Source of the DNA: an uncultured Gammaproteobacteria bacterium | GTDB taxonomy: Bacteria; Patescibacteriota; Patescibacteriia; UBA9934; CAZDDW01 | NCBI GenBank assembly: GCA_965231015.1 | Contig: OZ246408.1 | Coordinates: 211,755 to 275,754 of the forward strand | Length of the DNA: 64,000 nucleotides | Direction: 5' to 3' | Part shown: piece after piece, positions 847 through 48,460 of the stretch | Position numbering within the stretch: position 1 is the first letter of the stretch | Layout of the letters: each line of letters starts with the position of its first letter | Position numbers and translations under genes: made by a program | Notes under the pieces: generated by a model | Database searches by the model: none | Seen by the model: the letters and a program-made list of their open reading frames with translations, nothing else | Told to the model about the DNA's origin: nothing

Positions 847-848
847 GC

Positions 849-30078: not shown

Positions 30079-30867
30079 CTAGGTAGGTATTTTGGGATCG
30101 AATCCGTGAGCTCTGGCAAAGGAATCCCAATAGTCAGGGCAGTCGATGAGTCGAGGATCAATGATACTCACCCCTTTTTTGATCTCATGAGCTACCCAAC
30201 CATCAAAGACTTCACCGTTTCCTTCGCGTAGGTTAGGACACATTCCTTGATTTGCATCAGAGTAATGCAGTTCGAAGGCCAGATCACATTCAGCTCTATA
30301 GGCCTCAATTTCTCTTTGCAACTTTTCCTCACACGGGTTTTCACCCTTGTACAAGCTTCCCTCAATAGTTTGCTCGTAGTGAATACTTTCGTGGTAGAGC
30401 GAAAGCCACATCTCAATTGAATCCCGACGGGTTGACATGCTGGCTAAATAGATTGGATTGACCCAAAGCTTAGTCGCATGTCCGTCCTCCAGAGAGTAAT
30501 AAACACCGGCTGTTGCCTGCCCCGTGTTTAGATTTTGGAACGAAAGGGGCAACCTTTCAGTATACACAGCATGCCGCAAAGTACCGTTGACTTTTTCTCT
30601 TGGATGACTCTCCATCAGTTTGTCCAGCCTTTGAGACAGCCCGGCGTTGATCTGGTCGGAAGGGAGGGCCAAGTTCAGTCTTTGGAAGACAGGTGGTGTT
30701 AACGGATCAATTCGTCTTGGTTTCTGATTTTCCGGATGCTCTGGTTTTGGTCGGTTTGATTCTTGTTCCGTAGATGCCGCGTTGTTATTCAATAGGCACA
30801 TAGCACCCAGAGTACAGATCAGAATTAACCCCAGCCACAGAATTCCGGAATTCTTTCTCTTTTGCAT
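30079..30867 (-). CDS. secreted lipoprotein with HExxH motif (putative zinc metallopeptidase-like)
   Basis: RBS AAGGAGG; signal peptide with Cys (TLGAMC); LYHESIHYEQ contains HExxH; GC-richer than the core genes. Confidence 0.4.
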   Translation of the reverse strand: MQKRKNSGILWLGLILICTLGAMCLLNNNAASTEQESNRPKPEHPENQKPRRIDPLTPPVFQRLNLALPSDQINAGLSQRLDKLMESHPREKVNGTLRHAVYTERLPLSFQNLNTGQATAGVYYSLEDGHATKLWVNPIYLASMSTRRDSIEMWLSLYHESIHYEQTIEGSLYKGENPCEEKLQREIEAYRAECDLAFELHYSDANQGMCPNLREGNGEVFDGWVAHEIKKGVSIIDPRLIDCPDYWDSFARAHGFDPKIPT

Positions 30868-31127
30868 TTTGTCCTCCTTTTGCTCATACCGAGCGAGTTG
30901 TTTGGTCACAAGCATGGGGTGACCAAGGGGCAGAGTCTCGTGATTTGTAATGATCGAACAAAATACAATATCACAGATTCAGTGATTTGTCAAGAGTTTT
31001 TTAGCTAAATTTAGCCAAATTTTGTCAATAAAAAATAACGCAACTTTTTTGCTAAAACTAAAACAGAATCAAAAAACATGTCAAGAAGTCTTAACAGAAT
31101 TTCTTGATTTTTATGTTATTTTAGCTA

Positions 31128-31703: not shown

Positions 31704-32045
31704 GACATTAGAACGTTCAAAGCACACCTCAAACATAATAGAGCCACGAGGAAATTGAAAGATTGAGACAACTGTTTAACTCGGTCCGCTAATTCCGGAT
31801 GGAATAAGTAAGTCGAGTTAGCCCCACGATTAAACGGTGCTCAGTTTTAAGCATAATTAAAGCCGGGTTCTGCTCCATGGTTCAGGGCGCGATCAGCAAG
31901 AGGGGAGTCTGCTGGTCGCCCATGAATCATTTTACTCCTACGTCTCCTTGGCTAAATCCTAACGGATTCCCCAAGCCAAGGAGGCGGTCGATCAGTGTTT
32001 GATCGAATTCGTCTCTTGTACCTTTCACAAGTTCAGGAGACAAAA

Positions 32046-33911
32046 ATGCAAAAGTTCATCACGGCTCTGGTGGTTTTTCTGGTGGCCGGCCTCACGCCGG
32101 CACCCATGGGATGTTCGGCGGGTTTCGATCCGGTCGATACCACCGCAACCACCGAAACCGGCGACCAGGGGGGTTACACCCCCACGGACGTGATCTACCC
32201 ACCCTTTGCCGCCGGCGAAGTCTACCAGTGCACGCAAGGCGTTGGCGGCAGCTATTCCCACAGCTCGGCCAGCACGTACGATGCCATCGACTTCGACACG
32301 CCCAACACCTACGACGTCGACGTGTACGCACCCTGTTCCGGCGTGGCGCGAGTGCATCATGACGCTTCGCCTTCTGGTTTCGGTATCCACGTCAACATCG
32401 ACCGCGGTGACGGAACCTACTGCTTGGTAGCACACCTCGCTGACGTGTTTGTGACCGATGGCGAGGACATCACACACGGTCAGTACATGGGCTTTGAGGG
32501 CTCAACCGGCTACAGCGACGGTGATCATGTGCACACGGCGTTGATGCAGGGTGACGCAAGCCAAATGGCTCAGTACGCCACCACGCTTCCGGTCAGCTTC
32601 TACGTCCGTGATGTCACTGCCGGTGGCGATTTCGCGGCCATTCCGGCCGAGGAATTCGTTTGCGGCATGAGCAACGGTCACTTCTACGAGTCCGGCCTGT
32701 CGGTCGCCAACTGGGTGCCTGATGGGACGCTCATGAAGTATCCGGGCGCAAGCGAAGTCTATGTGGTGGACGCCGATGAGCTCTACTGGATCGAAGACGA
32801 AGAGGTCTTCACAAGCTTCGGGTTTGAGATGAGCGAAATCGTGGCCATGGCCGAGATCACTTATTACGAGTGTCTGGGCGAGGCTTCGGACCTGATCGAT
32901 TGGACCACGGAGTACCGTGGGCTCATCGATGACGACGGCGTGACCTGGATCGCGTTCGAGCCGGCTGATGACCCGGGGCGGTTCCGCTTGCCAATTCAAC
33001 CCTACCAGGAAGAAGGCGCGGTCTTGACCATGATCGATTCCTGGGGGCTCCAGGGTGTCTATGGCATGTACCAGCAGGAGTCAGCCGAGCTCATCGAGTA
33101 CCCGATTGGCAACGGCTACGCGCTGTTGCGCGACGGAACGCTCGTCACCGAGCAGGGTGACTCGACCGTGTACGCGATTCACGAAGGTCTGGCTCTGCCG
33201 ATCGATTCATGGGACACGCTCGTGCTCATGGGTTTTTCCGAGCGTCGCGTTCACACCGTGCCCGAAGGAACGCTCGAGCAAATGGTGCTCGACGTTGGCA
33301 GTTGCTCGGCTGGGATCGGGTGCATTACCCGCGACGTGGTTACTGGCTGCGGAACCGGACTCGACCTGTCGCTCCTCGACACTGACCCGGACTGGGGCGG
33401 CATCGGGGACGATGACGTCGGGGACGACGATGATGTCTCGGATGACGATGACTCGGATCCGGGAGATGACGACGACACCGCAGACGACGATGACACCGGT
33501 GATGACGATGACGTCGGGGACGACGATGACGACGACACCATGGCTGACCCATGGATGTTGCTCGAAATCTATGCTGGGCTCACCGGCGCTCCGGCTGACT
33601 ACATCTGGCTCCAGGGTGAGCTCCTTGACGAGAATGGCCTGACGGCTGGCGGCGGTTTCTGGTGGGCCTCGCTCGGGATTGAGTACACGACCAACTCCAT
33701 TGAATGGAGCGCGTACGTGCAGCCCGACTGGACCTTCCGCTACTCCGTGGAATTCGAGCGCTATTCCGTAGTGGCCTGGTCCTGTTCCACTCCGTTCCCG
33801 CCCGGAACCTACAACATGGACCTCACGGCCATGGTCGATGGCACACCGATCATGATCGATCTCATCGACAACTACCTCGGCGGCTGTGAGCTCTGGATCG
33901 AGGTGCCGTGA
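32046..33911 (+). CDS. M23-family (LytM/lysostaphin-like) peptidoglycan endopeptidase lipoprotein with poly-Asp linker and C-terminal extra domain (GC-rich, likely acquired)
   Basis: Lipoprotein signal …LTPAPMGCS; M23 motifs HSSASTYDAIDF (Hx6D), VYAPCSGV, GDHVHTAL (HxH); linker DDDVGDDDDVSDDDDSDPGDDDDTADDDDTGDDDDVGDDDDDD; about 62 percent GC. Confidence 0.7.
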   Translation: MQKFITALVVFLVAGLTPAPMGCSAGFDPVDTTATTETGDQGGYTPTDVIYPPFAAGEVYQCTQGVGGSYSHSSASTYDAIDFDTPNTYDVDVYAPCSGVARVHHDASPSGFGIHVNIDRGDGTYCLVAHLADVFVTDGEDITHGQYMGFEGSTGYSDGDHVHTALMQGDASQMAQYATTLPVSFYVRDVTAGGDFAAIPAEEFVCGMSNGHFYESGLSVANWVPDGTLMKYPGASEVYVVDADELYWIEDEEVFTSFGFEMSEIVAMAEITYYECLGEASDLIDWTTEYRGLIDDDGVTWIAFEPADDPGRFRLPIQPYQEEGAVLTMIDSWGLQGVYGMYQQESAELIEYPIGNGYALLRDGTLVTEQGDSTVYAIHEGLALPIDSWDTLVLMGFSERRVHTVPEGTLEQMVLDVGSCSAGIGCITRDVVTGCGTGLDLSLLDTDPDWGGIGDDDVGDDDDVSDDDDSDPGDDDDTADDDDTGDDDDVGDDDDDDTMADPWMLLEIYAGLTGAPADYIWLQGELLDENGLTAGGGFWWASLGIEYTTNSIEWSAYVQPDWTFRYSVEFERYSVVAWSCSTPFPPGTYNMDLTAMVDGTPIMIDLIDNYLGGCELWIEVP

Positions 33912-33954
33912 TCTCAACACAAAAGGGTCAACAGCCGTTGACCACTACACCGCA

Positions 33955-33989
33955 TCCGGCCTGACGTTCTGTTAGGCCGGATATTTTTT
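33955..33989 (+). terminator. rho-independent terminator TCCGGCCT-N11-AGGCCGGA followed by TATTTTTT
   Basis: 8-bp GC stem followed by a T-run. Confidence 0.6.
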
Positions 33990-34472
33990 ATGAACAGACA
34001 TTCAATTCGATTTCAAAATTTAAATTATGCTCAACCCGGTTTTTATTTCGTGACATTTTGTACGCAAAATAGGGAACGATTGTTTGAACATGATGATGTC
34101 ATCGATACGATTAATTATATCTGGCGCGATTTACCGAACCGGTTTAATGATATCGTGGTTGATGATTGGATTGTGATGCCCGATCATTTTCATGGGATTA
34201 TTGTTTTGGGTGCATCGAATTTTGATGTAGGGGCCTCTACATTAGGAAATGTTATAGGTGCATTTAAATCAATTACAACCGACGCCTATATTCACGGTGT
34301 TAAACACCACAATTAGATACCGTTTGAGGGCAGATTGTGGCAACGAAATTATTTTGAACGGGTGATTCGAAATGAGGAAGAGTCAGACCAAATAAGGGAA
34401 TATACTCGTCTCAATCCTGAGCTTAAAAACGAACAAGAAGACGATCCCTGTACAATCCACAATCAGGCTTAA
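33990..34472 (+). pseudogene. REP-associated tyrosine transposase (RAYT, IS200/IS605-family Y1 TnpA) interrupted by an in-frame TAG at 34314-34316
   Basis: GFYFVTFCTQNRERLF, HuH motif MPDHFHGIIVL, then TAG, then the same frame continues LWQRNYFERVIRNEEESDQIREYTRLNP (the catalytic Tyr region); colinear with E. coli YafM-type RAYTs. Confidence 0.6.
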
Positions 34473-34518: not shown

Positions 34519-37290
34519 ATGAAACGTTTTATAGAAGGGGTAAAAACCCAACTTTTTAAGCTTGCTACAGATCCGCGTAAACGATTTTTGCTGATCATTG
34601 CATTTGTCGCTATTTTTGCGATTTTTTTCGTTGCCGTAGATCCTGCTATGGCTGCTGATGAAAGCACAGACGACTTTGATTTCATGACCTGGCTCATGAC
34701 TCAAATGGCGCAGTGGTTATTAAACATTACACAAATAATCGGTCAGGTCATTGTGGCTTTGGTGGGAGTATTGGTTCAAATCATTCAATACAATGGTTTT
34801 TCCAATTCTCAAGTGATCGGTCTTGGTTGGGCTTTAGTGCGCGACACACTAAACATCGGATTCATTGCTGTGCTTATTTTGGTGGCTCTGGGAACGATTG
34901 TTTTTGGCGAAAGTGGAGCCGGGGGAAGATTCAACTGGCGAAAAAATCTCCCGAACATTGTTATTTTTGCCATTCTCATTAATTTCAGCCGGTTGTTTTG
35001 CGGGATCATGATTGATATCAGCAACGTGATCATGCTTACATTTGTCAACGGAATTAAAGATATTGCTGGTGGAAATATTATCCAACTCTTTGGGTTAAGT
35101 AGCATCATGAGTTTTAGTGAGAAATCCGTTCAGGCATCAATTGATGCAGGAACCGGGTTAACCGCTTTTTCCATGCTGGCCGCTTCCTTGCTCGCTTTGC
35201 TGATGATGTCCATTGTGCTTCTGACCATGATCACCATGATCGCCATGCTTGGAGCCCGGATCGTGATTTTGTGGGTTTTGGTAGTTCTTTCTCCGGCCGC
35301 ATTTTTTGCCGGAGCCGCCAAAAATGTATTACAGGGTCAAGCTATGAAGGTTTACAGTGATTGGTGGGCTAACTTCACTGGTGCTCTGGCCGTTGGTCCG
35401 ATTTTAGTATTTGTTTTATGGTTAGCTCTGGCCGTAGCCGGTTCCGGCAGTATTGCCAGCGAGTTTGCTGTGGACGGAGGTACCGAGGCTGATGCTTTTG
35501 TGTCTGACATTCCGAACCAGGTTTTTGAACGGGACAATCTTATCAGTTTTATAATTGGAATTTTAATCATGTTTGTCGGATTTGATATCGCGGTCAAGAC
35601 CGCTTCGGCGTTACCGGGCGGCTTTAAGAGTTTGGTTGGTCCCGGTTTGGCGGCTCGAGCTTTGCGAACTGCAGCTGTGACCACGGCGCGTGTGGGCTAC
35701 CGCGGCGCTCGTGGCGCGGCCGGACTTGGGGTTGGTGCTGCTGCCGGTGCTCTTCGAAAAGGTGGTCAAGCGGCTCGTTGGGGAGCCGGCCTTGCTGGTG
35801 GTGCTTTGGCAGAAAATATTCGTCTTAAACCTCCAACTTATGACGCAAAAACCGGAAAGCTGAAAGAGGGTGAAAAAGAGGTTCGTGTGAAAGACATCAA
35901 GGCTTATGCCGCGGATCAGTTAAAGGCCGCTGGTATGCGCGGAATTGCCAAGGGGGTTCCCGGAGCCGGTTATGTCACCCAGTATGCGGCTGAAGTTGGT
36001 GCGGCTGATCGAGGCAAAAAAGCTGCTTTACTTAATAATGCTATTGATAAACAAAAAGTGATGGGCAAGGATGAATTGTTGGCGATTGCCTCGAACCCTA
36101 ATCCGGCCATGAGTGCAGAAGAAAATGCCCGCCGCCAGGCCGCTCGTTATCAGTTGTTGACCCAGTTTAAACATAGGAAAGATCTAGACAGCAATCAGGT
36201 AAAGGCTCTGAAAACAGACTTTAATGAGGGTGGAGGTAAGGAACTTATTGAGGGAGATGAGAACAAAAAAGAGGCTATGCTCAAAGCCGGACACAAGCGT
36301 TTGGATATGTTCAAAGGCGATTGGCGCGACCCTGATTCTGATCTTGGTAAGGCGATTACCGGGCTTGAAGGAAAAGACTTTAAGGATCTTGATTCACAGG
36401 CTTTACAAGACCCTCGAATTCAAGAAATGCTCAAAGAAAAACAAATGTTTGTTAAGAGTGAGAACAGAGATATTCCAGTTTGGGATGCTTTGAAGAGAGT
36501 TGGAAAAGAAGCCCATAAGAGGGAGATTGCTTCTGTTGAATCTGGTGGTCAAAATTATGAGGATTTAGCCAAAGCTATGGGGCAACAGCAGGTTAATTTG
36601 CAGGCCAAAATTGAACAGTCTCCAGCTGGTGAGCGAGCTCAGTTGCGTGAGGAAATGGCTCGTATGCGCACAGCTCAAGCTGGGGCAACTCAAGATTTTA
36701 TTGAAAGAAACCCAGCCTTTCTGTCTCAGGCCAAAGCAACAGATCTGGCCGCCGGTGGTGGGGTTTTGGCTCAAAATGTAGCTGTTTCAGGAACCCCTCG
36801 TCAGATTAGGGATGCAACGGCTAGCGATGAAAAGCGAACTGAGTTTTTGTCGCAAACCAGTGAAGATCGCATGCGCGGTCTTGGTTATACCGACGATCAA
36901 GTGTTTGAGGCTCGAGCCGGCAGATTTATAGCGTCAGGCAGCTCAGACGATCTTGGACCAAGTGCTGAGCGGGGAGCGGTGATTCAGCGTGTTGTTGAGC
37001 GTGGTGGTCCGAAAGAAGTTAATAATTTGATTCAAGTTGCAAATTCTCAAGAAGGGGCGGCGGCTCAAGAAGCGGCTCGAATTGAAGTGGCTGAATCATT
37101 TGATAAGAGTAAGGTTGAATCAATTTTGAATGATTTCGAAACTGCAACCGGGGAACAAAAAGAACAGTTGCGCCAGAATCTTTCCGGTCTCAAAGAAACC
37201 TTCAGTCAGATTCGTGATGTAAATATGACCGGTGAGATGCAGGAGATTAAGAAGATGCTTGAGCTCAAGGACTACAAGTACGAAGGTTAA
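34519..37290 (+). CDS. polytopic membrane protein with long hydrophilic C-terminal extension; VirB6/TrbL-like candidate
   Basis: About 8 TM helices in the first 350 aa, then about 570 aa of charged/Ala-Gly-rich sequence; first gene of the T4SS-like run. Confidence 0.4.
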   Translation: MKRFIEGVKTQLFKLATDPRKRFLLIIAFVAIFAIFFVAVDPAMAADESTDDFDFMTWLMTQMAQWLLNITQIIGQVIVALVGVLVQIIQYNGFSNSQVIGLGWALVRDTLNIGFIAVLILVALGTIVFGESGAGGRFNWRKNLPNIVIFAILINFSRLFCGIMIDISNVIMLTFVNGIKDIAGGNIIQLFGLSSIMSFSEKSVQASIDAGTGLTAFSMLAASLLALLMMSIVLLTMITMIAMLGARIVILWVLVVLSPAAFFAGAAKNVLQGQAMKVYSDWWANFTGALAVGPILVFVLWLALAVAGSGSIASEFAVDGGTEADAFVSDIPNQVFERDNLISFIIGILIMFVGFDIAVKTASALPGGFKSLVGPGLAARALRTAAVTTARVGYRGARGAAGLGVGAAAGALRKGGQAARWGAGLAGGALAENIRLKPPTYDAKTGKLKEGEKEVRVKDIKAYAADQLKAAGMRGIAKGVPGAGYVTQYAAEVGAADRGKKAALLNNAIDKQKVMGKDELLAIASNPNPAMSAEENARRQAARYQLLTQFKHRKDLDSNQVKALKTDFNEGGGKELIEGDENKKEAMLKAGHKRLDMFKGDWRDPDSDLGKAITGLEGKDFKDLDSQALQDPRIQEMLKEKQMFVKSENRDIPVWDALKRVGKEAHKREIASVESGGQNYEDLAKAMGQQQVNLQAKIEQSPAGERAQLREEMARMRTAQAGATQDFIERNPAFLSQAKATDLAAGGGVLAQNVAVSGTPRQIRDATASDEKRTEFLSQTSEDRMRGLGYTDDQVFEARAGRFIASGSSDDLGPSAERGAVIQRVVERGGPKEVNNLIQVANSQEGAAAQEAARIEVAESFDKSKVESILNDFETATGEQKEQLRQNLSGLKETFSQIRDVNMTGEMQEIKKMLELKDYKYEG

Positions 37291-37299
37291 TAAACTATT

Positions 37300-39111
37300 A
37301 TGGATGACTTGGTCCAACTCGATAAGGATGTCCTTAAGTTCCTGAACAGTTATGATTTACTGTCCAGGATTCTTAAAGTTTTAGAAGAACACCAGCTTGA
37401 TGAAAGTGCGTATAAAAAAGTAGCACCGATCATTGACAGGATTGTGGACGCGCCTCAAAACATGAGCCGTCTACCAAGTGAGATCGGAAAAGTGCTTAAC
37501 CTAAATCAAGCTAAAGCCAAACGATTAGCAACGGATTTGGCCGGATTTTGGTTGTTGCCACTCGAGGCACACCTGGGTGATGTATCCGGGTTAATTGTGA
37601 AGTGGGGAGGTGATCTTAGCCGCTACCCAAAAGATACGGTGGCTAAAAAATCGATTAATCCAATGCAATTCACCCGTGAGACTTTGTCGACTCTAGGGGT
37701 GAAGATGGAAGAACCGGCCATGAAGAATAGGTTGGAATATGTTTTAAGTACTTTAGTGCGCGGTGTGCGAACTCCGGATGATGCCAAGCGAGTTATGGTA
37801 CGCGGTAAAAAGGTGGGTGGATTAGAAATGAGTAAAGAAGAAGCAGATAAATTGGTGGATCATTTTGTAGCCAAGATGGAGAACGTGGAGATTGATCGTG
37901 GGCCGGCTGTACCAGTTGATGGGGTGGAAACAAAAAAAGCACCACCGGTTAAAGAAAAACCAAGGCCGGAGGCGGTTAAAGAGATTCAGAAATTGAAAAA
38001 AACGGTCAAAACCAAAAAGAGAGAAGAAGATGAAAAGAAAAAGAAGCCTGAACCGACTCCTAAAAAATCACAACTCGAAGTCAAATCGAAAGCATCTTTT
38101 TCAGTAGAAACCTTTTCTGATGAAGATGAAACCGAGGTCAAGGCCGCGGCCAAAAAAATTGCCAAAGCTCCGTCCAGCCCGGTCTCGATTGAAAAAACAG
38201 TTGATAAAGTAATAAAAGAGGCCGGAATCAAGTTTAAGACTTTGGAGGGTGAAAAACGATTTAGGAAAATCGTAGAAACGCGCTTGCGTGACGTTCGTGA
38301 CGCGCTTGAAACACGCGATATTTTGGAAGACAAAGTTGAACAGGGTGGACTAGGTCTTCAGGGAGCTCGTTTGGCTGATGTCATAGAATTGATTGAAAGG
38401 GCTTATAATGATCATGCATCAAAGTTGGGTGAACAAAAAGCCAAAGAAAAGCAGAAATATTTGCAAAAACGAAAAGAAGCTGAGTCAGGGAAAGCTGACC
38501 TTGCCCGCGCCGAAGCCGATGTTTTAGCTAAGCGTTATGCCAGCCTGACCGGAAAAGCCCCATCACATCTTGTTACCCCGGCGGCTCCTACCGCGGCCAA
38601 GGTTAGCGCTTCCCGAGGAAGTGAAACGGATTTAAAGGAAGCAGCGTCAAAAATTGATCAGGACAAAGTTAAACGGGTCATGGCCAAACCAAGTCAGCCA
38701 GCACAAGCCGATGCACACCTGTCAGCGGCTAGTGTTGCTAAGCAATCAGGACAGAGACCGCAGGTGCAGGATGTGGCTCGGGCTCGGAAGCTGGTTGGTC
38801 CGATTGATGAACTCGGCAATATGAATACAGTTAGTTTTCGTCGGTTGTCGTCTGATCCGGACGAAGCGGTTTTAAAAATTAGGGATAAAATTGAACTTTT
38901 AGAAGCGGATTCTTACGCTAAGCGCTTAAAGGGAATCAAAGCTTGGCAGCAAAGTCCTTTATATAAGCTGTACTTGCAGGTGATGCGGGAGTCATTGGTG
39001 CGTGGTTTACAGGTTAAAGATATTGCCGGGGAAATTGGGTCAGCTGAACAGGCTTTAAAGCCCGAAGAGGTGCAAAGTATCCGAAAACTGAACAAACAGC
39101 TAAAATTTTGA
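37300..39111 (+). CDS. hypothetical protein with Lys/Pro-rich low-complexity middle region (T4SS-associated)
   Basis: 603 aa, no TM; KKAPPVKEKPRPE…KKKKPEPTPKK region. Confidence 0.35.
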   Translation: MDDLVQLDKDVLKFLNSYDLLSRILKVLEEHQLDESAYKKVAPIIDRIVDAPQNMSRLPSEIGKVLNLNQAKAKRLATDLAGFWLLPLEAHLGDVSGLIVKWGGDLSRYPKDTVAKKSINPMQFTRETLSTLGVKMEEPAMKNRLEYVLSTLVRGVRTPDDAKRVMVRGKKVGGLEMSKEEADKLVDHFVAKMENVEIDRGPAVPVDGVETKKAPPVKEKPRPEAVKEIQKLKKTVKTKKREEDEKKKKPEPTPKKSQLEVKSKASFSVETFSDEDETEVKAAAKKIAKAPSSPVSIEKTVDKVIKEAGIKFKTLEGEKRFRKIVETRLRDVRDALETRDILEDKVEQGGLGLQGARLADVIELIERAYNDHASKLGEQKAKEKQKYLQKRKEAESGKADLARAEADVLAKRYASLTGKAPSHLVTPAAPTAAKVSASRGSETDLKEAASKIDQDKVKRVMAKPSQPAQADAHLSAASVAKQSGQRPQVQDVARARKLVGPIDELGNMNTVSFRRLSSDPDEAVLKIRDKIELLEADSYAKRLKGIKAWQQSPLYKLYLQVMRESLVRGLQVKDIAGEIGSAEQALKPEEVQSIRKLNKQLKF

Positions 39112-39123
39112 TAGAATACACTC

Positions 39124-39552
39124 ATGGATCAGTTTGTGGTTCCACAATTTATCGACGTTGAAGACAAGATTATCGGGCCTGTTTCGACCCGACAGTTTAT
39201 TTTAATGCTCTTTCCATTGTTAATTGGAGCGCTTTTCTGGAAACTTTTTACCTTGATGTATTTCATTATTTTTATCATTCCGGTCCTGATTATTTTCGGA
39301 TTACTGGCTTTTTTCAAGATCAACGGTATGCCGTTACACTTTTTCTTGTTAAATTTGATACAAAGTTTGCGCAAGCCGCGACTCCGTGTTTGGGACAAGT
39401 CTTTAACGGATGCTGAGTTAAGAGAAAGAATAAAGAAAGAAGAAGCTCCACCTCCACCTGCTCCATTACGTAAAGAACCAATTAGCTCAAGCCGTTTACA
39501 CGAGTTGACGTTGGTTGTGAACACCGGTGGAGTGTATCAACCTGAAGAATAA
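39124..39552 (+). CDS. PrgI/TcpE-family small membrane protein (VirB3 analogue)
   Basis: VVPQFIDVEDKIIGPVSTRQFILMLFP matches the PrgI-family N-terminus; 2 TM; directly precedes VirB4. Confidence 0.55.
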   Translation: MDQFVVPQFIDVEDKIIGPVSTRQFILMLFPLLIGALFWKLFTLMYFIIFIIPVLIIFGLLAFFKINGMPLHFFLLNLIQSLRKPRLRVWDKSLTDAELRERIKKEEAPPPPAPLRKEPISSSRLHELTLVVNTGGVYQPEE

Positions 39553-39554
39553 TT

Positions 39555-40235
39555 ATGGCCAAGAAAAAATTAGCAAAACCAAAACCAGGACCTGCTACCC
39601 AACGTTATCTTGATATTTCCGAGGTCCGTGAGGATGTGGTCGTGATGAAGGATGGAACTATGCGAGCCGTGATTTTGGTTTCCAGCATTAACTTCGCCTT
39701 AAAGTCAGAAGATGAACAAATTGCCATTGTCCAGGCTTACATGTCTTTTTTGAATGGTTTAGATTATCCCCTGCAGGTTGTGGTGCAATCACGACGCATG
39801 AACATTGACTCGTATCTGACTTCCTTAAGAGAGAGATCTCGCGAAACTCTGAACGAAGCCTTGCGTGGGCAAATCAATGATTATCTGAGCTTTATTGAAG
39901 AATTAGTTACTTTAGGAGAGGTAATGCAAAAGCAGTTTTTTGTGGTCGTGCCATTTGATCCGACAACCGACAAGAAACGTAATTTTTGGCAGCGTTTAAG
40001 CGCGGCTGTTTCACCCGCTGTGCGAATTAAACTAAAGGACAAAGAGTTCAAAGAACGTCGGGATGATCTATTACGTCGCGCTGATTTGACGCTTGGCCAG
40101 CTAACGAGTATGGGTCTTTCCGGAACAGTGCTTGATACCCAAGGATTGATTGAACTTTATTACACAGTTTATAATCCTGACGTTTTTGATAAGGAGCGCA
40201 TGGTTGATTTAAACAAATTGAGAGTTGAACAATAA
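39555..40235 (+). CDS. VirB4/TraC-like N-terminal domain encoded as a separate ORF
   Basis: YLDISEVREDVVVMKDGTMRAVILVSSINFALKSEDEQIAIVQAYMSFLNGLDYPLQVVVQS is the typical Gram-positive VirB4 N-terminus; ends 2 nt before the next ATG. Confidence 0.55.
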   Translation: MAKKKLAKPKPGPATQRYLDISEVREDVVVMKDGTMRAVILVSSINFALKSEDEQIAIVQAYMSFLNGLDYPLQVVVQSRRMNIDSYLTSLRERSRETLNEALRGQINDYLSFIEELVTLGEVMQKQFFVVVPFDPTTDKKRNFWQRLSAAVSPAVRIKLKDKEFKERRDDLLRRADLTLGQLTSMGLSGTVLDTQGLIELYYTVYNPDVFDKERMVDLNKLRVEQ

Positions 40236-40237
40236 TT

Positions 40238-42166
40238 ATGGCCATTGAATTAGGAAAAATTGGTAAGGCTACTCCGGCCCCACCGCCCAAAGAACAAAAA
40301 CCGCCATCAAAAGAAAAGCAACAGGCGGCTGAAGAGAGAAAATCTCTTGAGGAAGAGAGGATTTATGCCAAGGGTGTGACTTCAGTGCGTGACTTGGTGG
40401 CTCCGGCTTCTTTTGAAGTATTCCCAACCTATCTGAGATTAAGCGGGGTTTATTTACGTACTCTGTTTGTGGTTAATTATCCACGCTACATTAGTTTAGG
40501 TTGGTCAGCGCCGATTATCAACCTTAACAACACCATGGACATAGCCATGTTTTTCTACCCGGTCAAGTCAGAAATCATTTTGAAACAATTGCGTAAGAAA
40601 GTCGGAGTGCTTGAAGCGGGAATCATGACGGATGCGGAAAAAGGAAAGCCACGTGACCCGATCAGGGAAACGGCCTTGCGCGACATTGAAAAATTACGAG
40701 ACGATTTAACACAGGGTATTGAACACTTTTTCCAGTTTGCTTTTTATATAACCATTTACGCCTCAAGTGAGGATGATCTTGAAAAGAAAACTGAAGAAAT
40801 TGAATCGATCTTTGGATCTAAGTTGATCTATTCCAAGAAAGGTTTTTATCAGGCTGAACAAGGGTTTAATTCAACCCTGCCTATTGGCAATGATGAGCTC
40901 ATGATCAGCTTTAACATGAATACCTCACCGATTGCCTCCTCTTTTCCTTTTATTAGCTCAGACCTGACTTCGGATAACGGAATTTTGTATGGAATTAACC
41001 GGCATAATAACAGTTTGATTTTGTTCGAACGGTTTAGTTTGCAAAATGCTAACTTTGTGGTTTTTGCCACTTCAGGTGCCGGAAAGAGTTATGCTATCAA
41101 GCTTGAAATTTTACGCTCTCTCATGCTGGGAGTGGACGTAATTGTGATTGATCCGGAAATGGAGTACAAACGGTTGTCCGACGCTGTGGGTGGTACCTAC
41201 ATCAACATTTCTTTGGCATCTGAATCTAAGGTGAACCCATTTGACCTTCCGCGACCAACCGGGGAGGGGGTTAAGGTAGATGATATTATTCGTTCCGCGG
41301 TTATCACTCTCAAAGGTCTTCTCAAAATCATGATCGGAATGCCGGTGGGAGAACAGGGAAAGCTTGGTTTTACTCCGGAGGAGGATTCGCTGTTGGATCG
41401 AGCCTTGTTAGAAACATATGCCAAAAAAGACATCACGGCCGATTTGGTGGATCTAACCAATATTGAACCACCGACCATGCAGGATTTGCAGGATATTTTA
41501 GAGGGAATGGAAGGAACAGAAAATTTGGTTGCTCGACTCAAAAAATATACAGAAGGTACTTTTTCCGGATTGATCAATTCTCCAACCACCGTTGAGATGA
41601 ATAATCAGCTTGTTACTTTCTCAGTCCGCGATTTGGAGGACGAATTAAGGCCAACCGCGATTTATACCATCGTTAACTACGTTTGGAACGTGGTGCGAAG
41701 TGAACGAAAGAAGCGAATTCTCGTAATTGACGAGGCCTGGTGGTTGATGCAGCACGAAGACTCAGCTAAGTTTATTTTCGCTCTTGTTAAACGTTGTCGT
41801 AAGTATTACCTCGGAGTAACCACCATTACCCAGGACGTCAACGACTTCCTTCGTTCCCCGTACGGTCAGGCTATTGTGACGAACTCAGCGCTCCAGCTAT
41901 TAATGAAGCAGTCTCCGGCCGGAGTTGATATTGTGCAAAAGACATTCAATCTGACTGACAGTGAAAAATATCTCTTGCTAGAATCCGGGGTGGGAGAAGG
42001 TATTTTCTTTGCCGGCCCAAAACATGCCGCAATTAAAGTGGTTGCTTCCTATACCGAGGATCAGATCATTACCACAGATCCACGACAACTATTAGAGATA
42101 GAAAAAGAAAAGCAGGAGTTGGAAGAAGAGCTGGCCAAGCAAGAGGGAGCTGAATCATCAACTTAA
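40238..42166 (+). CDS. VirB4/TraC-like conjugative ATPase (middle plus ATPase domains)
   Basis: Walker A ATSGAGKSYAIK, Walker B ILVIDEAWWLM, motif VTTITQDV. Confidence 0.8.
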   Translation: MAIELGKIGKATPAPPPKEQKPPSKEKQQAAEERKSLEEERIYAKGVTSVRDLVAPASFEVFPTYLRLSGVYLRTLFVVNYPRYISLGWSAPIINLNNTMDIAMFFYPVKSEIILKQLRKKVGVLEAGIMTDAEKGKPRDPIRETALRDIEKLRDDLTQGIEHFFQFAFYITIYASSEDDLEKKTEEIESIFGSKLIYSKKGFYQAEQGFNSTLPIGNDELMISFNMNTSPIASSFPFISSDLTSDNGILYGINRHNNSLILFERFSLQNANFVVFATSGAGKSYAIKLEILRSLMLGVDVIVIDPEMEYKRLSDAVGGTYINISLASESKVNPFDLPRPTGEGVKVDDIIRSAVITLKGLLKIMIGMPVGEQGKLGFTPEEDSLLDRALLETYAKKDITADLVDLTNIEPPTMQDLQDILEGMEGTENLVARLKKYTEGTFSGLINSPTTVEMNNQLVTFSVRDLEDELRPTAIYTIVNYVWNVVRSERKKRILVIDEAWWLMQHEDSAKFIFALVKRCRKYYLGVTTITQDVNDFLRSPYGQAIVTNSALQLLMKQSPAGVDIVQKTFNLTDSEKYLLLESGVGEGIFFAGPKHAAIKVVASYTEDQIITTDPRQLLEIEKEKQELEEELAKQEGAESST

Positions 42167-42176
42167 CAATAAATAT

Positions 42177-42740
42177 ATGAGCCGACGCATCAAAATAATT
42201 TTAGCTATTCTGATTATAGTGTTGATATTATTAGCGTTGTTTTTATTGTGGTGGAATATTTGGCGACCCCAACCAGCTCCGACCACTGTTGTAGTTGTTG
42301 AAACCGAAGAGGAGGAGGTTAGCTCACCGTTTGCAATTCCGCCGATCGCGGAGTTGGATCAACGTACCGACGAAGAAATTTCTGTGGAAACTCTGGCTAA
42401 AACATTTGCTGAACGCTATGGTAGTTATTCTAACGAAAGTAATTTTGCTAATTTAGATGATTTGGAACCATTGATGACAGATAGTTTAGCCAGTGAATTG
42501 GCTGTAATGGTTGCTAATACAGATATCTCAGACATGTATTATGGAATTACTACGCAAGTAGTATCAATGAACATTATCAGCATTGATGAAACATCCGGAA
42601 CCGCTTCAATTAGTGTTTTAACACAACGTGAAGAAGCCGTTGGGGGCCCAACCAATACTGAAGTTAGTTACGAAACATTGGTTTTAGACATGGTGAAAGT
42701 TAGTGGAGTGTGGAAAGTAGACGGTGTAACATGGCAATAA
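42177..42740 (+). CDS. bitopic membrane protein, possible VirB8-like (NTF2-like) component
   Basis: Single N-terminal TM, 150-aa extracytoplasmic domain ending …VKVSGVWKVDGVTWQ; position after VirB4. Confidence 0.3.
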   Translation: MSRRIKIILAILIIVLILLALFLLWWNIWRPQPAPTTVVVVETEEEEVSSPFAIPPIAELDQRTDEEISVETLAKTFAERYGSYSNESNFANLDDLEPLMTDSLASELAVMVANTDISDMYYGITTQVVSMNIISIDETSGTASISVLTQREEAVGGPTNTEVSYETLVLDMVKVSGVWKVDGVTWQ

Positions 42741-43468
42741 AAAGTGTTCAGACATTTTTCCGATCAAATAAGGCCGCGCTCGACGCGGCTCTTAAAGTCG
42801 CGTTTGATGCTGTTTTTCCTGAATTTTGTGTGGTTTGTAAAAAAGAGGGCTCACAAATATGCGAGAGTTGTCTTTTACAAGCTCGGGTTAAGGTTTTGCA
42901 CGAGCGGTGCCCATTTTGCGAACGGGTCACCGGAAGCGGTTCTGTTTGTCGACATTGTGCCAGGTTTGAGAGTTTAGATGGAGCCATTTCGGTGTCCCAA
43001 TATGCTGAACCTGCTGTGCGTGGGCTCATTAAGAATTGGAAGTATGCCAGTGACACACGAGCGCAAGAAGAGTTGGCTAAACTGGTTCGGCGGGTCTATT
43101 TGGAAAATTTTTTACCGGACTTGCCGTGGGTAATTGTGCCGGCCGGTTTGCATCGTGCCCGAGCCAATGAGCGAGGTTTTGACCAAGCATACGAATTAGC
43201 TCAAATTTTTTCGACTCAAGCTGAATGGCCGTTGCTAGATTGTTTGCGTCGAGTTAAAAACAGTCTTCCCCAGGCACGAGCCGGCCATACAAGAAAAACC
43301 CCGGGCGAGCTACGCGGGTTGTATCAAGTAATTTGTGCTGTCCCAGAGCATGTTTTGCTGGTTGACGATGTTTTGACCACCGGAGCCACCCTTGACGCAG
43401 CGGCTTACGCTTTGAAGCGGTCTGGAGCGGAAAATGTGTGGGCATTGACAATGGCCCGAGGAACATAG
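42731..43468 (+). CDS. comFC: ComF-family protein (ComFC/GntX; zinc finger plus PRTase domain)
   Basis: Four-Cys N-terminus (CVVC…CESC, CPFC…CRHC) and PRTase motif LLVDDVLTTGATL. Confidence 0.75.
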   Translation: MAIKSVQTFFRSNKAALDAALKVAFDAVFPEFCVVCKKEGSQICESCLLQARVKVLHERCPFCERVTGSGSVCRHCARFESLDGAISVSQYAEPAVRGLIKNWKYASDTRAQEELAKLVRRVYLENFLPDLPWVIVPAGLHRARANERGFDQAYELAQIFSTQAEWPLLDCLRRVKNSLPQARAGHTRKTPGELRGLYQVICAVPEHVLLVDDVLTTGATLDAAAYALKRSGAENVWALTMARGT

Positions 43469-43502
43469 CATGGTTTTTATAAGAAGCAATAATTAAAATT
43501 CT

Positions 43503-43901
43503 ATGAATGAACAACACGATGCATTTTCACCCCAGTTTAATGAGCCTCAAGATAACTCAAAAAAGAAAGAAGTTAGAGAAAAAAGAGACAGAATGGCAAT
43601 CAAGGGGAGCAGTGAAGATAGCTTTGCTCCTATGTGGGATGAAAAAGAAGCAGAGGAACATTTTTACGATCTTATAGGAGATCGTTCTGGAATGAAAGAA
43701 AATATTGAGGCATTAAAAAATCCAGATTTAGATGAACAGCAAGTCGCTGAATTGATAGATGGACTAAATAGTATGGGAAAAAGTGGTGGTCAGAGCGGTG
43801 AAATAGGCGCAGACTTTTATTTAGAGCTTCCTTCGGGATACAATGTGCATGCTCAATATCAGGCCTCTGGTGGACGGTTAAGTTTTTCACTCATGAAATA
43901 G
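43503..43901 (+). CDS. hypothetical soluble protein
   Basis: 132-aa ORF with no recognisable motifs. Confidence 0.3.
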   Translation: MNEQHDAFSPQFNEPQDNSKKKEVREKRDRMAIKGSSEDSFAPMWDEKEAEEHFYDLIGDRSGMKENIEALKNPDLDEQQVAELIDGLNSMGKSGGQSGEIGADFYLELPSGYNVHAQYQASGGRLSFSLMK

Positions 43902-43913
43902 CAGGAAAAGAAA

Positions 43914-43940
43914 AATCTCGGTCTGAACCGAGATTTTTAT
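43914..43940 (+). terminator. rho-independent terminator AATCTCGGT-CTGA-ACCGAGATT followed by TTTAT
   Basis: Perfect 9-bp stem with a tetraloop. Confidence 0.6.
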
Positions 43941-45091: not shown

Positions 45092-47143
45092 ATGATTTTT
45101 CTCGACAACAAAGTAACAACTTTACCTGGAATTGGGCCGGTAGTGGCCAAGGATTTTAAGAAACTTGAAATTATCACCATTCGAGATCTTTTGTTGTATT
45201 TTCCGTTTCGGTATGAAGATTTGTCAAAAGTTAGCTCGATTGAGGATTTGGTCCCCGATGAAGTAGCGACCGTGCAGGGTCGGGTGGTAAATATGAAAGC
45301 GCGGCGTTCGTCTCGGAAACGGATGATGCTGACCGAGGGAATCGTGGAGGATGATACTGGTCGAATAAAAGTTGTCTGGTTTAATCAGCCATACTTGGCT
45401 AAGAGTTTTCGTCCCGGAATCCAGGTGTCATTATCTGGGCGGGTTGATGATAAATATGGTTTGTCACTTGTGAATCCGATTTATGAGATTTTGAAGTCGA
45501 ACGAGACCGTGCATACGGGTCGCATCGTTCCCGTGTATCCGCTTACCGGATCGTTAACTGGCAAACGGCTTCGGAACGCGATTCATACGTCTTTGAAAGC
45601 GGCAGGACAAATGGAGGACTGGTTACCCGATGAGTTGCTCGACAACGAGGACTTTTTAGATTTACCAACCTCGATTAGAACGATTCATTATCCGAGTGTC
45701 CTAGAAGAGCTCGAAGCGGCTATCCGACGGATGAAGTTTGATGAACTGTTTTTGCATCAACTAATGTTTGCTCGGGCTCGTGAGGAACAAGCAAGCTTGC
45801 CAGCCCATGCAATGAATAGAGATAAGAAGGCCGAAAATAGGTTTAAGAAATCGTTTCCGTTTGATTTAACCAAGGCCCAGGATCGCTCAGTGGACGAGAT
45901 TCTTAATGATCTTACTCATGACAATCCCATGAACCGATTACTCGAAGGAGACGTTGGTTCAGGTAAGAGTGCGGTAGCGGCGTGTGCTTTGGAAGCTTGT
46001 GCCCGAGCAATGTTTCAGGCAGCATATTTAGCCCCGACCGAGATATTGGCCAAGCAACAGTATGAAGAAATGAAAAAGGTGCTATCTGACTATCGAGTTG
46101 CTTTGCTCACTAGATCAGAATTTCGAATCTCAGATTCAGATCAAGTATCCAAGGATGAAATAAAAGATGAGTTGAGCTCGGGTAAAATTGATGTTGTAGT
46201 AGCAACCCATGCATTACTCCAAGATGGATACAAGTTTTCAAAACTTGGTCTACTCGTGATTGATGAGCAGCACCGGTTTGGGGTTAAGCAACGTCAGGAG
46301 TTGATTGCGCGATCAGGTGATACTGCACCGCATTTGCTTTCAATGTCAGCCACGCCAATTCCTCGTTCGCTCGCCTTGTCGGTTTACGGGGACTTAGATC
46401 TATCAATTTTGGATGAGCTTCCCGCAGGGCGAAAACCAATCGATACTAAGATTGTGACCAGTAAAAACATGTCGAGCGCCATCAAGCTCATGGATGTCTC
46501 GATTAAAAATGGTCAGCAGGTTTACGCGGTATGTCCTTTGATCGATCCATCCGACAAACTTGGAGCTACTTCTGTAACTGAGTTTTCGGACGAATTGAAA
46601 TCTGGACCGCTCAAGAAGCACCGCATCGAGATTTTGCATGGCAAGCTCAAAACCGCAGATAAGCAGGATGTAATTGATCGGTTTGTGGCCGGAGCAATCG
46701 ACATCCTGGTCTCGACCACTGTGGTTGAAGTCGGGGTGAACGTCCCAAATGCCACAGTGATGTATATCGAGGGGGCTGATCGGTTCGGGTTGGCACAGTT
46801 GCACCAGCTCCGCGGTCGGGTGGGACGGTCAGATTTGAAATCGTTCTGTCTTTTGCATACCGAATCGTCCTCGGGAAAAGCACCCGAGCGTTTAGAGGCC
46901 ATGGTAAAAAGCCAAGATGGTTTTGAGTTGGCTGAGAAAGATCTCGAACTTCGCGGGGCAGGGAATATTTTTGGCACCGCTCAATCTGGTTTTGCTGACT
47001 TTAAACTCGCGACTTTGGCTGACGTGGACATAATGAAAAAAGCCCGGGATTGGGCTCAAAAAGTAATGAATAAAGGTTTGAAGAAGTACCCTGGAATATC
47101 AGATCGACTGGAAGCAGAATATCACGAAGTTCATTTTGAATAA
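45092..47143 (+). CDS. recG: ATP-dependent DNA helicase RecG
   Basis: N-terminal wedge domain; helicase motifs GDVGSGKS, DEQHRFG, TATPIPRSL, HQLRGRVGR. Confidence 0.85.
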   Translation: MIFLDNKVTTLPGIGPVVAKDFKKLEIITIRDLLLYFPFRYEDLSKVSSIEDLVPDEVATVQGRVVNMKARRSSRKRMMLTEGIVEDDTGRIKVVWFNQPYLAKSFRPGIQVSLSGRVDDKYGLSLVNPIYEILKSNETVHTGRIVPVYPLTGSLTGKRLRNAIHTSLKAAGQMEDWLPDELLDNEDFLDLPTSIRTIHYPSVLEELEAAIRRMKFDELFLHQLMFARAREEQASLPAHAMNRDKKAENRFKKSFPFDLTKAQDRSVDEILNDLTHDNPMNRLLEGDVGSGKSAVAACALEACARAMFQAAYLAPTEILAKQQYEEMKKVLSDYRVALLTRSEFRISDSDQVSKDEIKDELSSGKIDVVVATHALLQDGYKFSKLGLLVIDEQHRFGVKQRQELIARSGDTAPHLLSMSATPIPRSLALSVYGDLDLSILDELPAGRKPIDTKIVTSKNMSSAIKLMDVSIKNGQQVYAVCPLIDPSDKLGATSVTEFSDELKSGPLKKHRIEILHGKLKTADKQDVIDRFVAGAIDILVSTTVVEVGVNVPNATVMYIEGADRFGLAQLHQLRGRVGRSDLKSFCLLHTESSSGKAPERLEAMVKSQDGFELAEKDLELRGAGNIFGTAQSGFADFKLATLADVDIMKKARDWAQKVMNKGLKKYPGISDRLEAEYHEVHFE

Positions 47144-48460
47144 TTAAAGTTCGGAAACAGTTTTTATGGCTCGGGTTTCAAAATCCGGGATTTTTGTTTT
47201 TGTTCGTTCTGGAATCCAGACTGCGTTCATACCAAGTCGAGCAGCTTCTTTGAGTCGACGTTCAGCAAAAGACACACTCCGCACTTCACCACCCAAACCA
47301 ACCTCACCAAAAATAATGGTTCCAGGTTCGACTTGCTGATTTTTTACCGCTCCAACAATAGCCGCAGCTACTGCCAGGTCGGCGGCCGGTTCGTCTAAGC
47401 TCAGTCCACCAATCACGTTAATGAATACGTCTGACTCACTAAGTTTTAATCCGGCTCGTTTAGATAATATGGCGCAGAGCATCTGTAGCCGGTTGGTGTC
47501 GAACCCAGAAGCCTTACGCACCGGAGTTCCATAAAAAGATTTATCAACTAAAGCCTGAACTTCAACAAGGAAGACTCGTGACCCCTCGACAGTGGCAGTG
47601 ACGACTGAACCCGGAGAGTTGCTACGCTCGGCTAAAAATCGTTCGGATGGATTTTCAATGGCGACCAAGCCGAGTTCATTCATTTCAAACACGCCAATCT
47701 CATCGGCAGAACCAAATCGGTTTTTGGTGGCGCGTAGAATACGCGTGGCATGCACAGGGTCGCCTTCTAAACTTAAAACCACGTCCACCAAATGTTCAAG
47801 AGTCTTGGGTCCGGCCACAGATCCGTCTTTAGTTACTTGTCCAACAATCAAAATCGGTAGGTCATTTTTTTTGGCGAGCTCTACGAGCATAGCTGTGGCT
47901 GCCCGGACCATGTTAGGCAAACCAGCCGTACTTTCGATCTCACTCGAGGTCAATGTTTGAGCTGAATCAACAATGAGTAGAGCCGGCATGGCTTTTTGAG
48001 CGGTAGCCACGACTCGTCCGACATCGGTTTCTCCAAGGTAGGCGATTTGGTCGGGTTTTATTGAGAGCCGCTGCAAACGTCCGGCCAATTGTCCGGCTGA
48101 CTCTTCACCGGAAGCATATATTATTTGTCCGGACATCTGGCCGGCAATTTGAGCAACGAGCGTTGACTTACCGATTCCCGGTTCACCGGCAATTAAAACT
48201 ACGGCTCCGGGCATAATTCCGCCTCCAAGAACACGATCTACTTCAGAAATTCCGGTCGCAGATCTGACTTGTGAGCTCGAGTCAATGGTCAAGGATTCCA
48301 GATCGCCGGGCGAATAGCCATTCGCTCCTACGCCTTTTTTCTTCTTCAAAGACAAAGCCGGTGCGGAATCATCCTCCCGCACCGTGCCCCAGGCCCCACA
48401 TTCGGTACATCGCCCGGCCCACTTAGCAAATTGTGCGTCACATTTTGAACAACAGAACAT
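47144..48460 (-). CDS. radA: DNA repair protein RadA/Sms
   Basis: N-terminal C4 zinc finger CSKCDAQFAKWAGRCTECGAW; RecA-like Walker A GEPGIGKST; KNRFG motif; Lon-like C-terminal domain. Confidence 0.85.
   Translation of the reverse strand: MFCCSKCDAQFAKWAGRCTECGAWGTVREDDSAPALSLKKKKGVGANGYSPGDLESLTIDSSSQVRSATGISEVDRVLGGGIMPGAVVLIAGEPGIGKSTLVAQIAGQMSGQIIYASGEESAGQLAGRLQRLSIKPDQIAYLGETDVGRVVATAQKAMPALLIVDSAQTLTSSEIESTAGLPNMVRAATAMLVELAKKNDLPILIVGQVTKDGSVAGPKTLEHLVDVVLSLEGDPVHATRILRATKNRFGSADEIGVFEMNELGLVAIENPSERFLAERSNSPGSVVTATVEGSRVFLVEVQALVDKSFYGTPVRKASGFDTNRLQMLCAILSKRAGLKLSESDVFINVIGGLSLDEPAADLAVAAAIVGAVKNQQVEPGTIIFGEVGLGGEVRSVSFAERRLKEAARLGMNAVWIPERTKTKIPDFETRAIKTVSEL

Follow-up and report, generated by a model that had tools for sequence, protein, structure and literature searches.

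The seven plus-strand genes at 34519–43468 of the 64-kb stretch of contig OZ246408.1 analysed here (hereafter the window) encode a monoderm-type cytoplasmic-membrane translocon, made up of VirB6-like, PrgI, TrsD plus VirB4 and VirB8-like components, and this translocon is almost certainly a functional, vertically inherited type IV secretion system (T4SS) of the ABY1 clade of Patescibacteria. Judged by its sequence, it is the ABY1 version of the chromosomal, relaxase-less Patescibacteria T4SS, derived from monoderm conjugation machinery, with an active-looking VirB4 ATPase as its motor. The seventh gene is comFC; in almost all ABY1 species examined, its translation appears to be coupled to that of the VirB8-like gene. 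Tentatively, DNA intake through ComFC is proposed as part of the function of the system. The open reading frames (ORFs) of the operon and the signals and remnants at its borders are as follows, with coordinates of the window:

33954–33982: strong terminator after the M23 peptidase gene, separating that gene from the operon

33990–34316 and 34335–34472 (+): REP-associated tyrosine transposase, broken into two ORFs (NF047646, E 2.5e-11)

34519–37290 (+): extended VirB6-like polytopic membrane protein, 923 aa, assigned by fold comparison

37300–39111 (+): soluble 603-aa protein, a conserved partner, between the VirB6-like gene and PrgI

39124–39552 (+): PrgI/VirB3-like small membrane protein (PF12666, 38 bits against a cutoff of 27)

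39555–40235 (+): TrsD-like protein, 226 aa (NF041427, E 9e-7), covering N-terminal VirB4 profile positions

40238–42166 (+): VirB4 ATPase, C-terminal two thirds, 642 aa (NF045971, PF19044)

42177–42740 (+): VirB8-like bitopic protein, 187 aa, in which a disordered linker joins an N-terminal transmembrane (TM) helix to an NTF2-like domain

42710–43468 (+): ComFC, 252 aa, with a zinc finger and a phosphoribosyltransferase fold; the frame opens within the 3′ end of the VirB8-like gene

43503–43901 (+): acidic 132-aa ORF, 34 nt after comFC and the last ORF before the hairpin

43911–43938 (both strands): bidirectional terminator-like hairpin with a 12-bp stem and T tracts on each strand, closing the operon

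Profile scans against Pfam and NCBIfam covered the ORFs of at least 150 aa in the window and some small ORFs. PrgI and a split VirB4, both proposed in an earlier model-made note on this DNA, are supported by PF12666 and by the CD1110 and TrsD models, respectively. The 642-aa protein matches the CD1110 family (NF045971) at 335 bits, against a cutoff of 325, over profile positions 172–729, and PF19044 at E 5e-26; its Walker A (SGAGKS) and Walker B (ILVIDEA) motifs are intact in the translation. The 226-aa protein aligns to the N-terminal profile positions of VirB4_plasma and CD1110, has a precomputed PF26593 TraC-like match, and matches NF041427 (TrsD/TraD) below the curated cutoff of 200. Since one protein covers the N-terminal positions and the other positions 172–729, the pair represents one split VirB4. 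TrsD lies 2 nt from virB4 here and is a separate gene of 225–250 aa in nearly all of 80 related loci, and a separate trsD beside virB4 is general in Patescibacteria (PMC12102498). By these family matches, VirB4 is assigned to the monoderm (Firmicutes-type) lineage of mating-pair formation (MPF) class FATA. PrgI has two hydrophobic segments and is 43–74 % identical across related loci.

The 923-aa VirB6-like, 603-aa and 187-aa VirB8-like proteins gave nothing usable in the Pfam/NCBIfam scans. When family profiles were compared with PDB sequences, the VirB6-like family returned coiled-coil noise only and the VirB8-like family a single FliL match (E 0.2). At the level of fold, both assignments of the earlier note were nevertheless borne out. 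The predicted structure of the VirB6-like protein resembles VirB6 at TM-scores of 0.31–0.39, a moderate match, and the VirB8-like protein combines a TM helix with an NTF2-like domain, as expected of a bitopic VirB8-like component. Within the VirB6-like protein, a conserved helical membrane domain occupies approximately residues 45–370, while the C-terminal half (~520 aa) is variable, hydrophilic and coiled-coil-like.

An ORF check recovered all seven genes on the plus strand where the earlier note had placed them. The tight, co-directional spacing it described is likewise confirmed, with intergenic gaps of 9, 12, 2, 2 and 10 nt in gene order, followed by the overlap of comFC with the VirB8-like gene, which measures 31 nt if comFC starts at GTG 42710 or 10 nt if it starts at ATG 42731, the start used in public assemblies. 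A terminator scan found no strong terminator inside the operon. Because the 132-aa ORF precedes the only strong terminator (43911–43938), the transcription unit most likely extends over 34519–43901 and comprises eight ORFs. No Pfam or NCBIfam family matches the 132-aa protein, and in tblastn it matches the same organism's contig only; it is not conserved in relatives. The promoter scan was uninformative (25 sites against 24.9 expected); a possible extended −10 element (TGCTATACT), spotted by eye only, lies 10 nt 5′ of the first ATG. The PrgI/TrsD (39543–39561) and TrsD/VirB4 (40226–40244) junctions share a near-identical 19-nt sequence (TGAAnAATAATTATGGCCA: stop, 2 nt, ATG GCC), which suggests similar translational coupling at both. 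Downstream, recG does not follow the module directly as had been stated: between them lie the terminator, a pair of minus-strand tRNA-Ser genes, a membrane ORF of 173 aa and a gene for tRNA-Arg. The inventory of seven genes was correct, but it omitted the eighth ORF, the M23 peptidase upstream and the pilin–VanY fusion downstream.

The 252-aa product of the seventh gene finds its best family in ComF (TIGR00201 comF, E 9.5e-23, 81 bits), followed by GntX (E 9e-18), with other phosphoribosyltransferase families at ~1e-5. Its domains are PF18912 DZR_2 (E 9e-6) and PF00156 Pribosyltran. The ComFC identity claimed earlier is upheld by this architecture of zinc ribbon plus phosphoribosyltransferase and by the ranking of families, though the ComF score stays below the curated cutoff. 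Cysteines C33, C36, C44 and C47 and the DDVxTxG loop, which would bind phosphoribosyl pyrophosphate (PRPP), are invariant in 43 ABY1 orthologues. Compared with PDB sequences, the ComF family profile found generic phosphoribosyltransferases and no ComFC chain.

The linkage of comFC to the T4SS proved stronger than the earlier note had supposed. In 74 of 75 related loci comFC stands directly after the VirB8-like gene, mostly with overlapping frames (1–49 nt), and in 74 of 75 the comF start lies 516–1089 nt past the virB4 stop. ComF identity across these loci falls to 28–52 %, and the position is kept nonetheless. ComFC is known as a membrane-associated, ssDNA-binding protein that connects transport to recombination, and transformation of Helicobacter pylori needs it (PMC9005727).

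The comparison set consisted of 80 species-representative genomes with VirB4 relatives, for which 20-kb loci (10-kb flanks) were examined by tblastn. Synteny, which the earlier note had proposed to check in related genomes, is conserved: the order VirB6-like, 603-aa, PrgI, TrsD, VirB4, VirB8-like, ComF is kept in essentially every sufficiently flanked locus. VirB4 is 71–85 % identical across the 80 species. Best-segment identities at the same loci are 74–85 % for VirB4 against 44–64 % for RadA and 36–68 % for RecG; VirB4 is thus more conserved than either, a sign of strong purifying selection. The remainder of the window, the flanks of the module included, is housekeeping in nature (pyrF, nusA, yidC, groES/EL, a release factor, sua5, ksgA, clpC, htpX-like, lemA, glmM-like, rseP-like and pheST). 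The earlier statement that mobilisation genes are missing holds across the whole window, in which neither a relaxase, a type IV coupling protein (T4CP/VirD4) nor an integrase was found among ORFs of at least 150 aa, and no oriT-like element was found.

The properly named relatives are Candidatus Uhrbacteria, Magasanikbacteria and Falkowbacteria, of the GTDB class ABY1, which identifies the carrier of the locus, as far as these matches and the ABY1 signature described in PMC12102498 reach, as an ultra-small, Uhrbacteria-like Patescibacteria bacterium of class ABY1. Many species-representative metagenome-assembled genome (MAG) records with the locus (L003, L004, L008–L011 and others) are titled 'uncultured Gammaproteobacteria bacterium', which looks like a default submitter label and not taxonomy.

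Several envelope and recombination genes recur around the T4SS:

31995–33911 (+): M23 peptidase, secreted or membrane-anchored (PF01551, E 2e-11), in a transcription unit of its own

45092–47143 (+): recG, with RecG_wedge, DEAD, Helicase_C and RecG_dom3_C domains, convergent with radA

47144–48460 (−): radA, with Zn ribbon, RecA-like ATPase and Lon/ChlI C-terminal domains; functional link to the T4SS uncertain

48464–49786 (−): VirB2-like pilin–VanY fusion, 440 aa, directly upstream of radA with a 3-nt gap

49776–50441 (−): membrane-anchored DsbA-like thioredoxin (PF13462, E 2e-22) with one TM segment

The M23 peptidase has one N-terminal TM segment (a signal anchor), and a homologue is found upstream of the VirB6-like gene in approximately 35 related loci. 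It is a candidate cell-wall hydrolase in the VirB1 role. An acidic (GAC/GAT)n repeat at 33390–33548 lies within this gene and accounts for the GC spike at 32–34 kb, which therefore marks neither foreign DNA nor an RNA gene; elsewhere GC content is uniform across the window. The pilin–VanY fusion joins a signal peptide and a Cys-rich domain to a pilin hairpin of VirB2-like type (PF18895 T4SS_pilin, 40 bits; cutoff 26.6) and to a VanY/M15 D,D-peptidase (PF02557 VanY, E 4e-11; PDB match to YodJ, E 2e-7), with TM segments at residues 5–23, 156–174 and 192–210. It lies ~6 kb downstream of virB4 here, adjoins radA in at least eight related loci, and may serve the T4SS as a component that is anchored in the membrane and remodels the wall. 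The small ORFs scanned included no separate pilin gene. The DsbA-like gene overlaps the start of the pilin–VanY gene by 11 nt and is co-conserved with it in several loci; its product is likely an oxidase for Cys-rich exported proteins.

As described earlier, radA ends an operon that converges on recG, being the last gene of a minus-strand run from clpC (52522–55014) through a 285-aa protein, a 408-aa beta-propeller-like membrane protein, the DsbA-like protein and pilin–VanY, with gaps of −11 to +5 nt. From this arrangement, the envelope genes look to have been inserted into a clpC–radA pair. In relatives, recG, radA, pilin–VanY and DsbA recur 3′ of the T4SS at variable spacing, with radA itself downstream in many but not all loci and at variable distance.

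In the mechanism proposed here, the T4SS would act at the contact between the ultra-small cell and its host, moving macromolecules across the envelope, and the most likely cargo in ABY1 would be incoming DNA, since comFC and the VirB8-like gene appear to be coupled in almost all ABY1 species examined. The M23 peptidase and the pilin–VanY fusion would be the wall-cutting enzymes nearby. DNA might enter in one step through the VirB6 channel, as in the archaeal Ced and Ted systems, or in two steps, in which the T4SS would carry it past the wall and ComEC would move it over the membrane, following the ComB system of H. pylori. ComFC would then receive the strand, and RecA, RadA and RecG would recombine the incoming DNA, or nucleases would recycle it. 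Four lines of evidence argue for intake: the coupling of comFC, by frame overlap, to the VirB8-like gene, which is almost universal although ComF has diverged to ~30 % identity; the known activity of ComFC as a membrane-associated protein that binds ssDNA and connects transport with recombination (PMC9005727); a second pairing of a T4SS-type gene with a recombination gene, that of pilin–VanY with radA; and the precedent of Ced/Ted, chromosomal systems that import DNA without a relaxase and lie near recombination genes (PMC9905601). Together these suggest that DNA intake may belong to the function of the system, in a reading that stops somewhat short of being probable.

Several observations weigh against DNA intake. 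The ComF score of 81 bits lies below the curated TIGR00201 cutoff of 233.6, and the VirB6 fold match is no better than moderate. recG is in a separate transcription unit, 3 to 10 kb from VirB4 among the loci. The clpC–radA linkage is old in Firmicutes, and the adjacency of radA may on that account be partly inherited and not functional. Southlakia (Saccharimonadia) is the one system studied by experiment; its T4SS is essential, whereas ComEC, ComF and DprA are no fitness genes, and transformation needs ComEC (PMC10633639). This implies that ComF has no part in at least one essential task of the T4SS. Genes for ComEC and for a type IV pilus are encoded by the ABY1 genus Patescibacterium (PMC11809585), and most freshwater MAGs assigned to the candidate phyla radiation (CPR) encode ComEA/ComEC (PMC9166423). 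With ComEC present in an ABY1 genus and in most freshwater CPR MAGs, ComFC may simply serve ComEC while sharing a promoter with the T4SS.

The strongest rival is a host-contact, effector-export or nutrient-conduit device, whose pilus or channel would deliver proteins to the host cell or draw molecules other than DNA out of it; comFC would share the promoter only, for co-regulation or as an economy in a compact genome, and work with ComEC. Besides the Southlakia fitness data and the ComEC and type IV pilus genes of an ABY1 genus, it draws on the suggestion of the Southlakia authors that the system, with coupling protein and relaxase missing, exports protein or has another role (PMC10633639). 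A VirB2-like pilin element and two peptidoglycan peptidases at the locus would fit envelope penetration, and the long, variable C-terminal half of the VirB6-like protein is as expected of a partner- or host-specific part. However, a contact device leaves unexplained why the comFC frame overlap persists in 74 of 75 species while surrounding genes shuffle. A second T4SS-related gene, pilin–VanY, lies 3 nt from radA, another DNA-recombination gene, and no effector-like or chaperone-like genes were recognised in the operon. Such a device is a serious, if doubtful, possibility.

DNA export, whether as a conjugation-like donor or as release of the type known from the Neisseria gonococcal genetic island, would require a relaxase and T4CP encoded elsewhere. 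The monoderm conjugation ancestry of the system (CD1110-family VirB4, TrsD and PrgI) speaks for it, VirD4-like proteins occur in many Patescibacteria genomes, mostly far from virB4 (PMC12102498), and the window covers 64 kb of a genome of ~1 Mb. Against this, the window yielded neither relaxase, T4CP nor oriT-like element, relaxases are known from only 103 Patescibacteria genomes, with 15 relaxase genes near virB4 (PMC12102498), the T4CP homologue is not essential in Southlakia (PMC12102498), and ComFC is known from the recipient, or import, side (PMC9005727). Export is accordingly regarded as improbable. An integrated conjugative element, or its decaying remnant beside tRNA genes, is scarcely credible and was rejected on synteny and gene content: three tRNA genes do lie just 3′ of the module and a broken transposase ORF just 5′ of the operon, but 80 species carry this locus beside the same chromosomal genes, the reading frames are all intact with VirB4 at its high interspecies identity, GC content equals that of the genome, the mobilisation and integration genes named above are missing from the window, tRNA-Ser paralogy and coding repeats were all that turned up when the surroundings of the module were searched for att-like direct repeats, and the transposase fragment, placed after the M23 terminator and before the operon, is not at the same site in relatives.

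The 603-aa protein is the least familiar member of the operon. No TM segment was found in it, nor any Pfam, NCBIfam or PDB sequence relative, and yet its gene occupies the same position in essentially all 80 related loci. The family comprises at least 3000 representative clusters (50 % identity) at E ≤ 1e-3, with 1634 left at E ≤ 1e-30, and no Pfam domain is common to the 60 members scanned. Three conserved blocks are separated by Pro/Lys-rich linkers. Matches of the family to the signal recognition particle (SRP) M-domain in the PDB (E ~0.08) were judged to be chance, and an interpretation of its 'GGLGL...A..I' motifs as helix-hairpin-helix (HhH) DNA-binding elements was dropped, as no HhH family matched. 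A distant member (P0155, L083:7043–11875; 28 % identity) lies directly after a 984-aa VirB6-sized gene, and in that locus dprA and topA are found a few genes upstream on the opposite strand. By analogy with Ced, the ABY1 T4SS could be pictured as a bacterial counterpart, a conjugation machine working in the opposite direction, that pulls host ssDNA into the epibiont through the VirB6-like channel to ComFC without ComEC, for recombination (RadA, RecG) and nucleotide supply, with the 603-aa family as a cytoplasmic adaptor in place of the coupling protein; this more specific scheme is unlikely.

Other genes of the window bear less directly on the T4SS:

67–846 (+): pyrF (orotidine 5′-monophosphate decarboxylase)

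822–1577 (+): phosphoribosyltransferase-like gene, a weak match and possibly pyrE

17693–27265 (+): giant Cys-rich secreted protein, 3190 aa, with a weak CBM_4_9 match only

30079–30915 (−): membrane-anchored 278-aa protein, matched by no family; its motif YHESIHY is HExxH-like

The earlier note had imagined the device working together with the giant protein as an adhesin. With related loci covered to 10-kb flanks, no link of the 3190-aa protein to the module was found, and it was set aside as a T4SS part, lying 7 kb upstream behind nuclease-like, PaaX-like and other genes. The 278-aa protein is possibly a small metalloprotease, to go by its motif. pyrF and the possible pyrE indicate that some pyrimidine synthesis is encoded, which bears on the idea of imported nucleotides.

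A large part of bacterial diversity belongs to the Patescibacteria, which apparently live off host cells; how they are supplied with building blocks is in question. The T4SS of Southlakia is the first shown to be essential to its own carrier bacterium, and only in ABY1 does the genome give a hint of what a Patescibacteria T4SS carries, because a protein dedicated to incoming DNA is encoded in the T4SS operon. The kind of T4SS, its ABY1 neighbourhood of comF, recG and radA, and the import of DNA or other macromolecules from hosts as a hypothesis are already in print (PMC12102498); a literature search found no further paper connecting comF with the Patescibacteria T4SS. With the hint already published, the window adds a well-resolved example and details, not a discovery. 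These details are the fold-level support for VirB6 and VirB8, the comFC coupling in 74 of 75 loci, the operon boundaries, the M23 and pilin–VanY accessory genes and the very large unannotated 603-aa family; as far as could be seen, neither the overlap of comFC with the VirB8-like gene nor the size of the 603-aa family is spelled out in that paper. If intake were true, a DNA-importing T4SS would be known for the first time from a monoderm bacterium, and genes could flow through it from host to epibiont and nucleotides be salvaged.

Among known systems, the ComB apparatus of H. pylori was the model favoured by the earlier note, and a ComB-like reading is plausible and already a published hypothesis (PMC12102498). 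The likeness stands in that ComB is VirB4-based and has no VirD4, VirB11 or relaxase, as is also the case here within 64 kb. It fails in that ComB, a system of diderms and of class MPF-T, has an outer-membrane core of VirB7/9/10 and passes DNA to ComEC, whereas no Pfam or NCBIfam match to a VirB7, VirB9 or VirB10 core was obtained in the window ORFs scanned and VirB4 does not belong to the ComB4/VirB4_CagE lineage (TIGR00929 VirB4_CagE, 103 bits against a cutoff of 643); both points count against the analogy, as do the separate unit of recG, the clpC-led run that radA ends, the ComEC and type IV pilus genes of an ABY1 genus and the Southlakia fitness data. To our knowledge, the comB genes of H. 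pylori are not in an operon with comFC.

The archaeal Ced and Ted systems are domesticated derivatives of T4SS, encoded on the chromosome, which take in DNA with no relaxase; the genes of Ted have recombination genes as neighbours (PMC9905601). They share with the ABY1 locus a VirB4-like ATPase, a VirB6-like channel, a VirB2-like pilin and a single-membrane envelope. The resemblance is architectural only, with marginal relatedness in sequence: Ced/Ted have no ComFC, PrgI, TrsD or VirB8-like parts, and the CedB model (NF041017) matches VirB4 partially at 45.8 bits, against a cutoff of 700. Import has been demonstrated for Ced and is a proposal for the ABY1 T4SS.

Closer in descent are the Gram-positive MPF-FATA systems. 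The VirB3–TrsD–VirB4 order of pGO1/pSK41 (TrsC–TrsD–TrsE) matches the order here, and the VirB6, VirB3, VirB4, VirB8 order of pCF10 (PrgH–PrgI–PrgJ–PrgK–PrgL) resembles it. The best model for VirB4 is CD1110 of the Clostridioides difficile element CTn2, and an outer-membrane core is missing in both. In contrast to these systems, the locus here has no relaxase, coupling protein, PrgB-type adhesin or plasmid/ICE (integrated conjugative element) backbone, and it is chromosomal and vertically inherited, with comFC and a VirB2-like element, a component missing from Gram-positive T4SS (PMC12102498, PMC12857230).

The nearest relatives are the T4SS of Patescibacteria themselves, whose VirB4 clade is monophyletic and related to monoderm MPF-FATA (Quinonero-Coronel et al. 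2025, PMC12102498). VirB4 with TrsD, PrgI/VirB3, a VirB6-like protein and a VirB2-like pilin are shared with that clade (PMC12102498), including Southlakia epibionticum (SEML1_0006–0019; Wang et al. 2023, PMC10633639), as are the chromosomal location, the lack of a relaxase or T4CP nearby and the MPF-FATA ancestry. In the survey of Patescibacteria, TrsD, PrgI/VirB3, VirB6 and VirB2-like genes are widespread, and VirB8 homologues are nearly confined to ABY1 (PMC12102498). The locus here differs little in kind, and in two features: Saccharimonadia have a pilin array, whereas this ABY1 locus has a single pilin element fused to VanY, and its hydrolase is the upstream M23 peptidase. The ABY1 signature of comF, recG and radA in the locus, together with VirB8, is present here as it was described (PMC12102498). 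A 2025 review counts the Patescibacteria systems as the T4SS superfamily's most exciting newcomers (PMC12857230).

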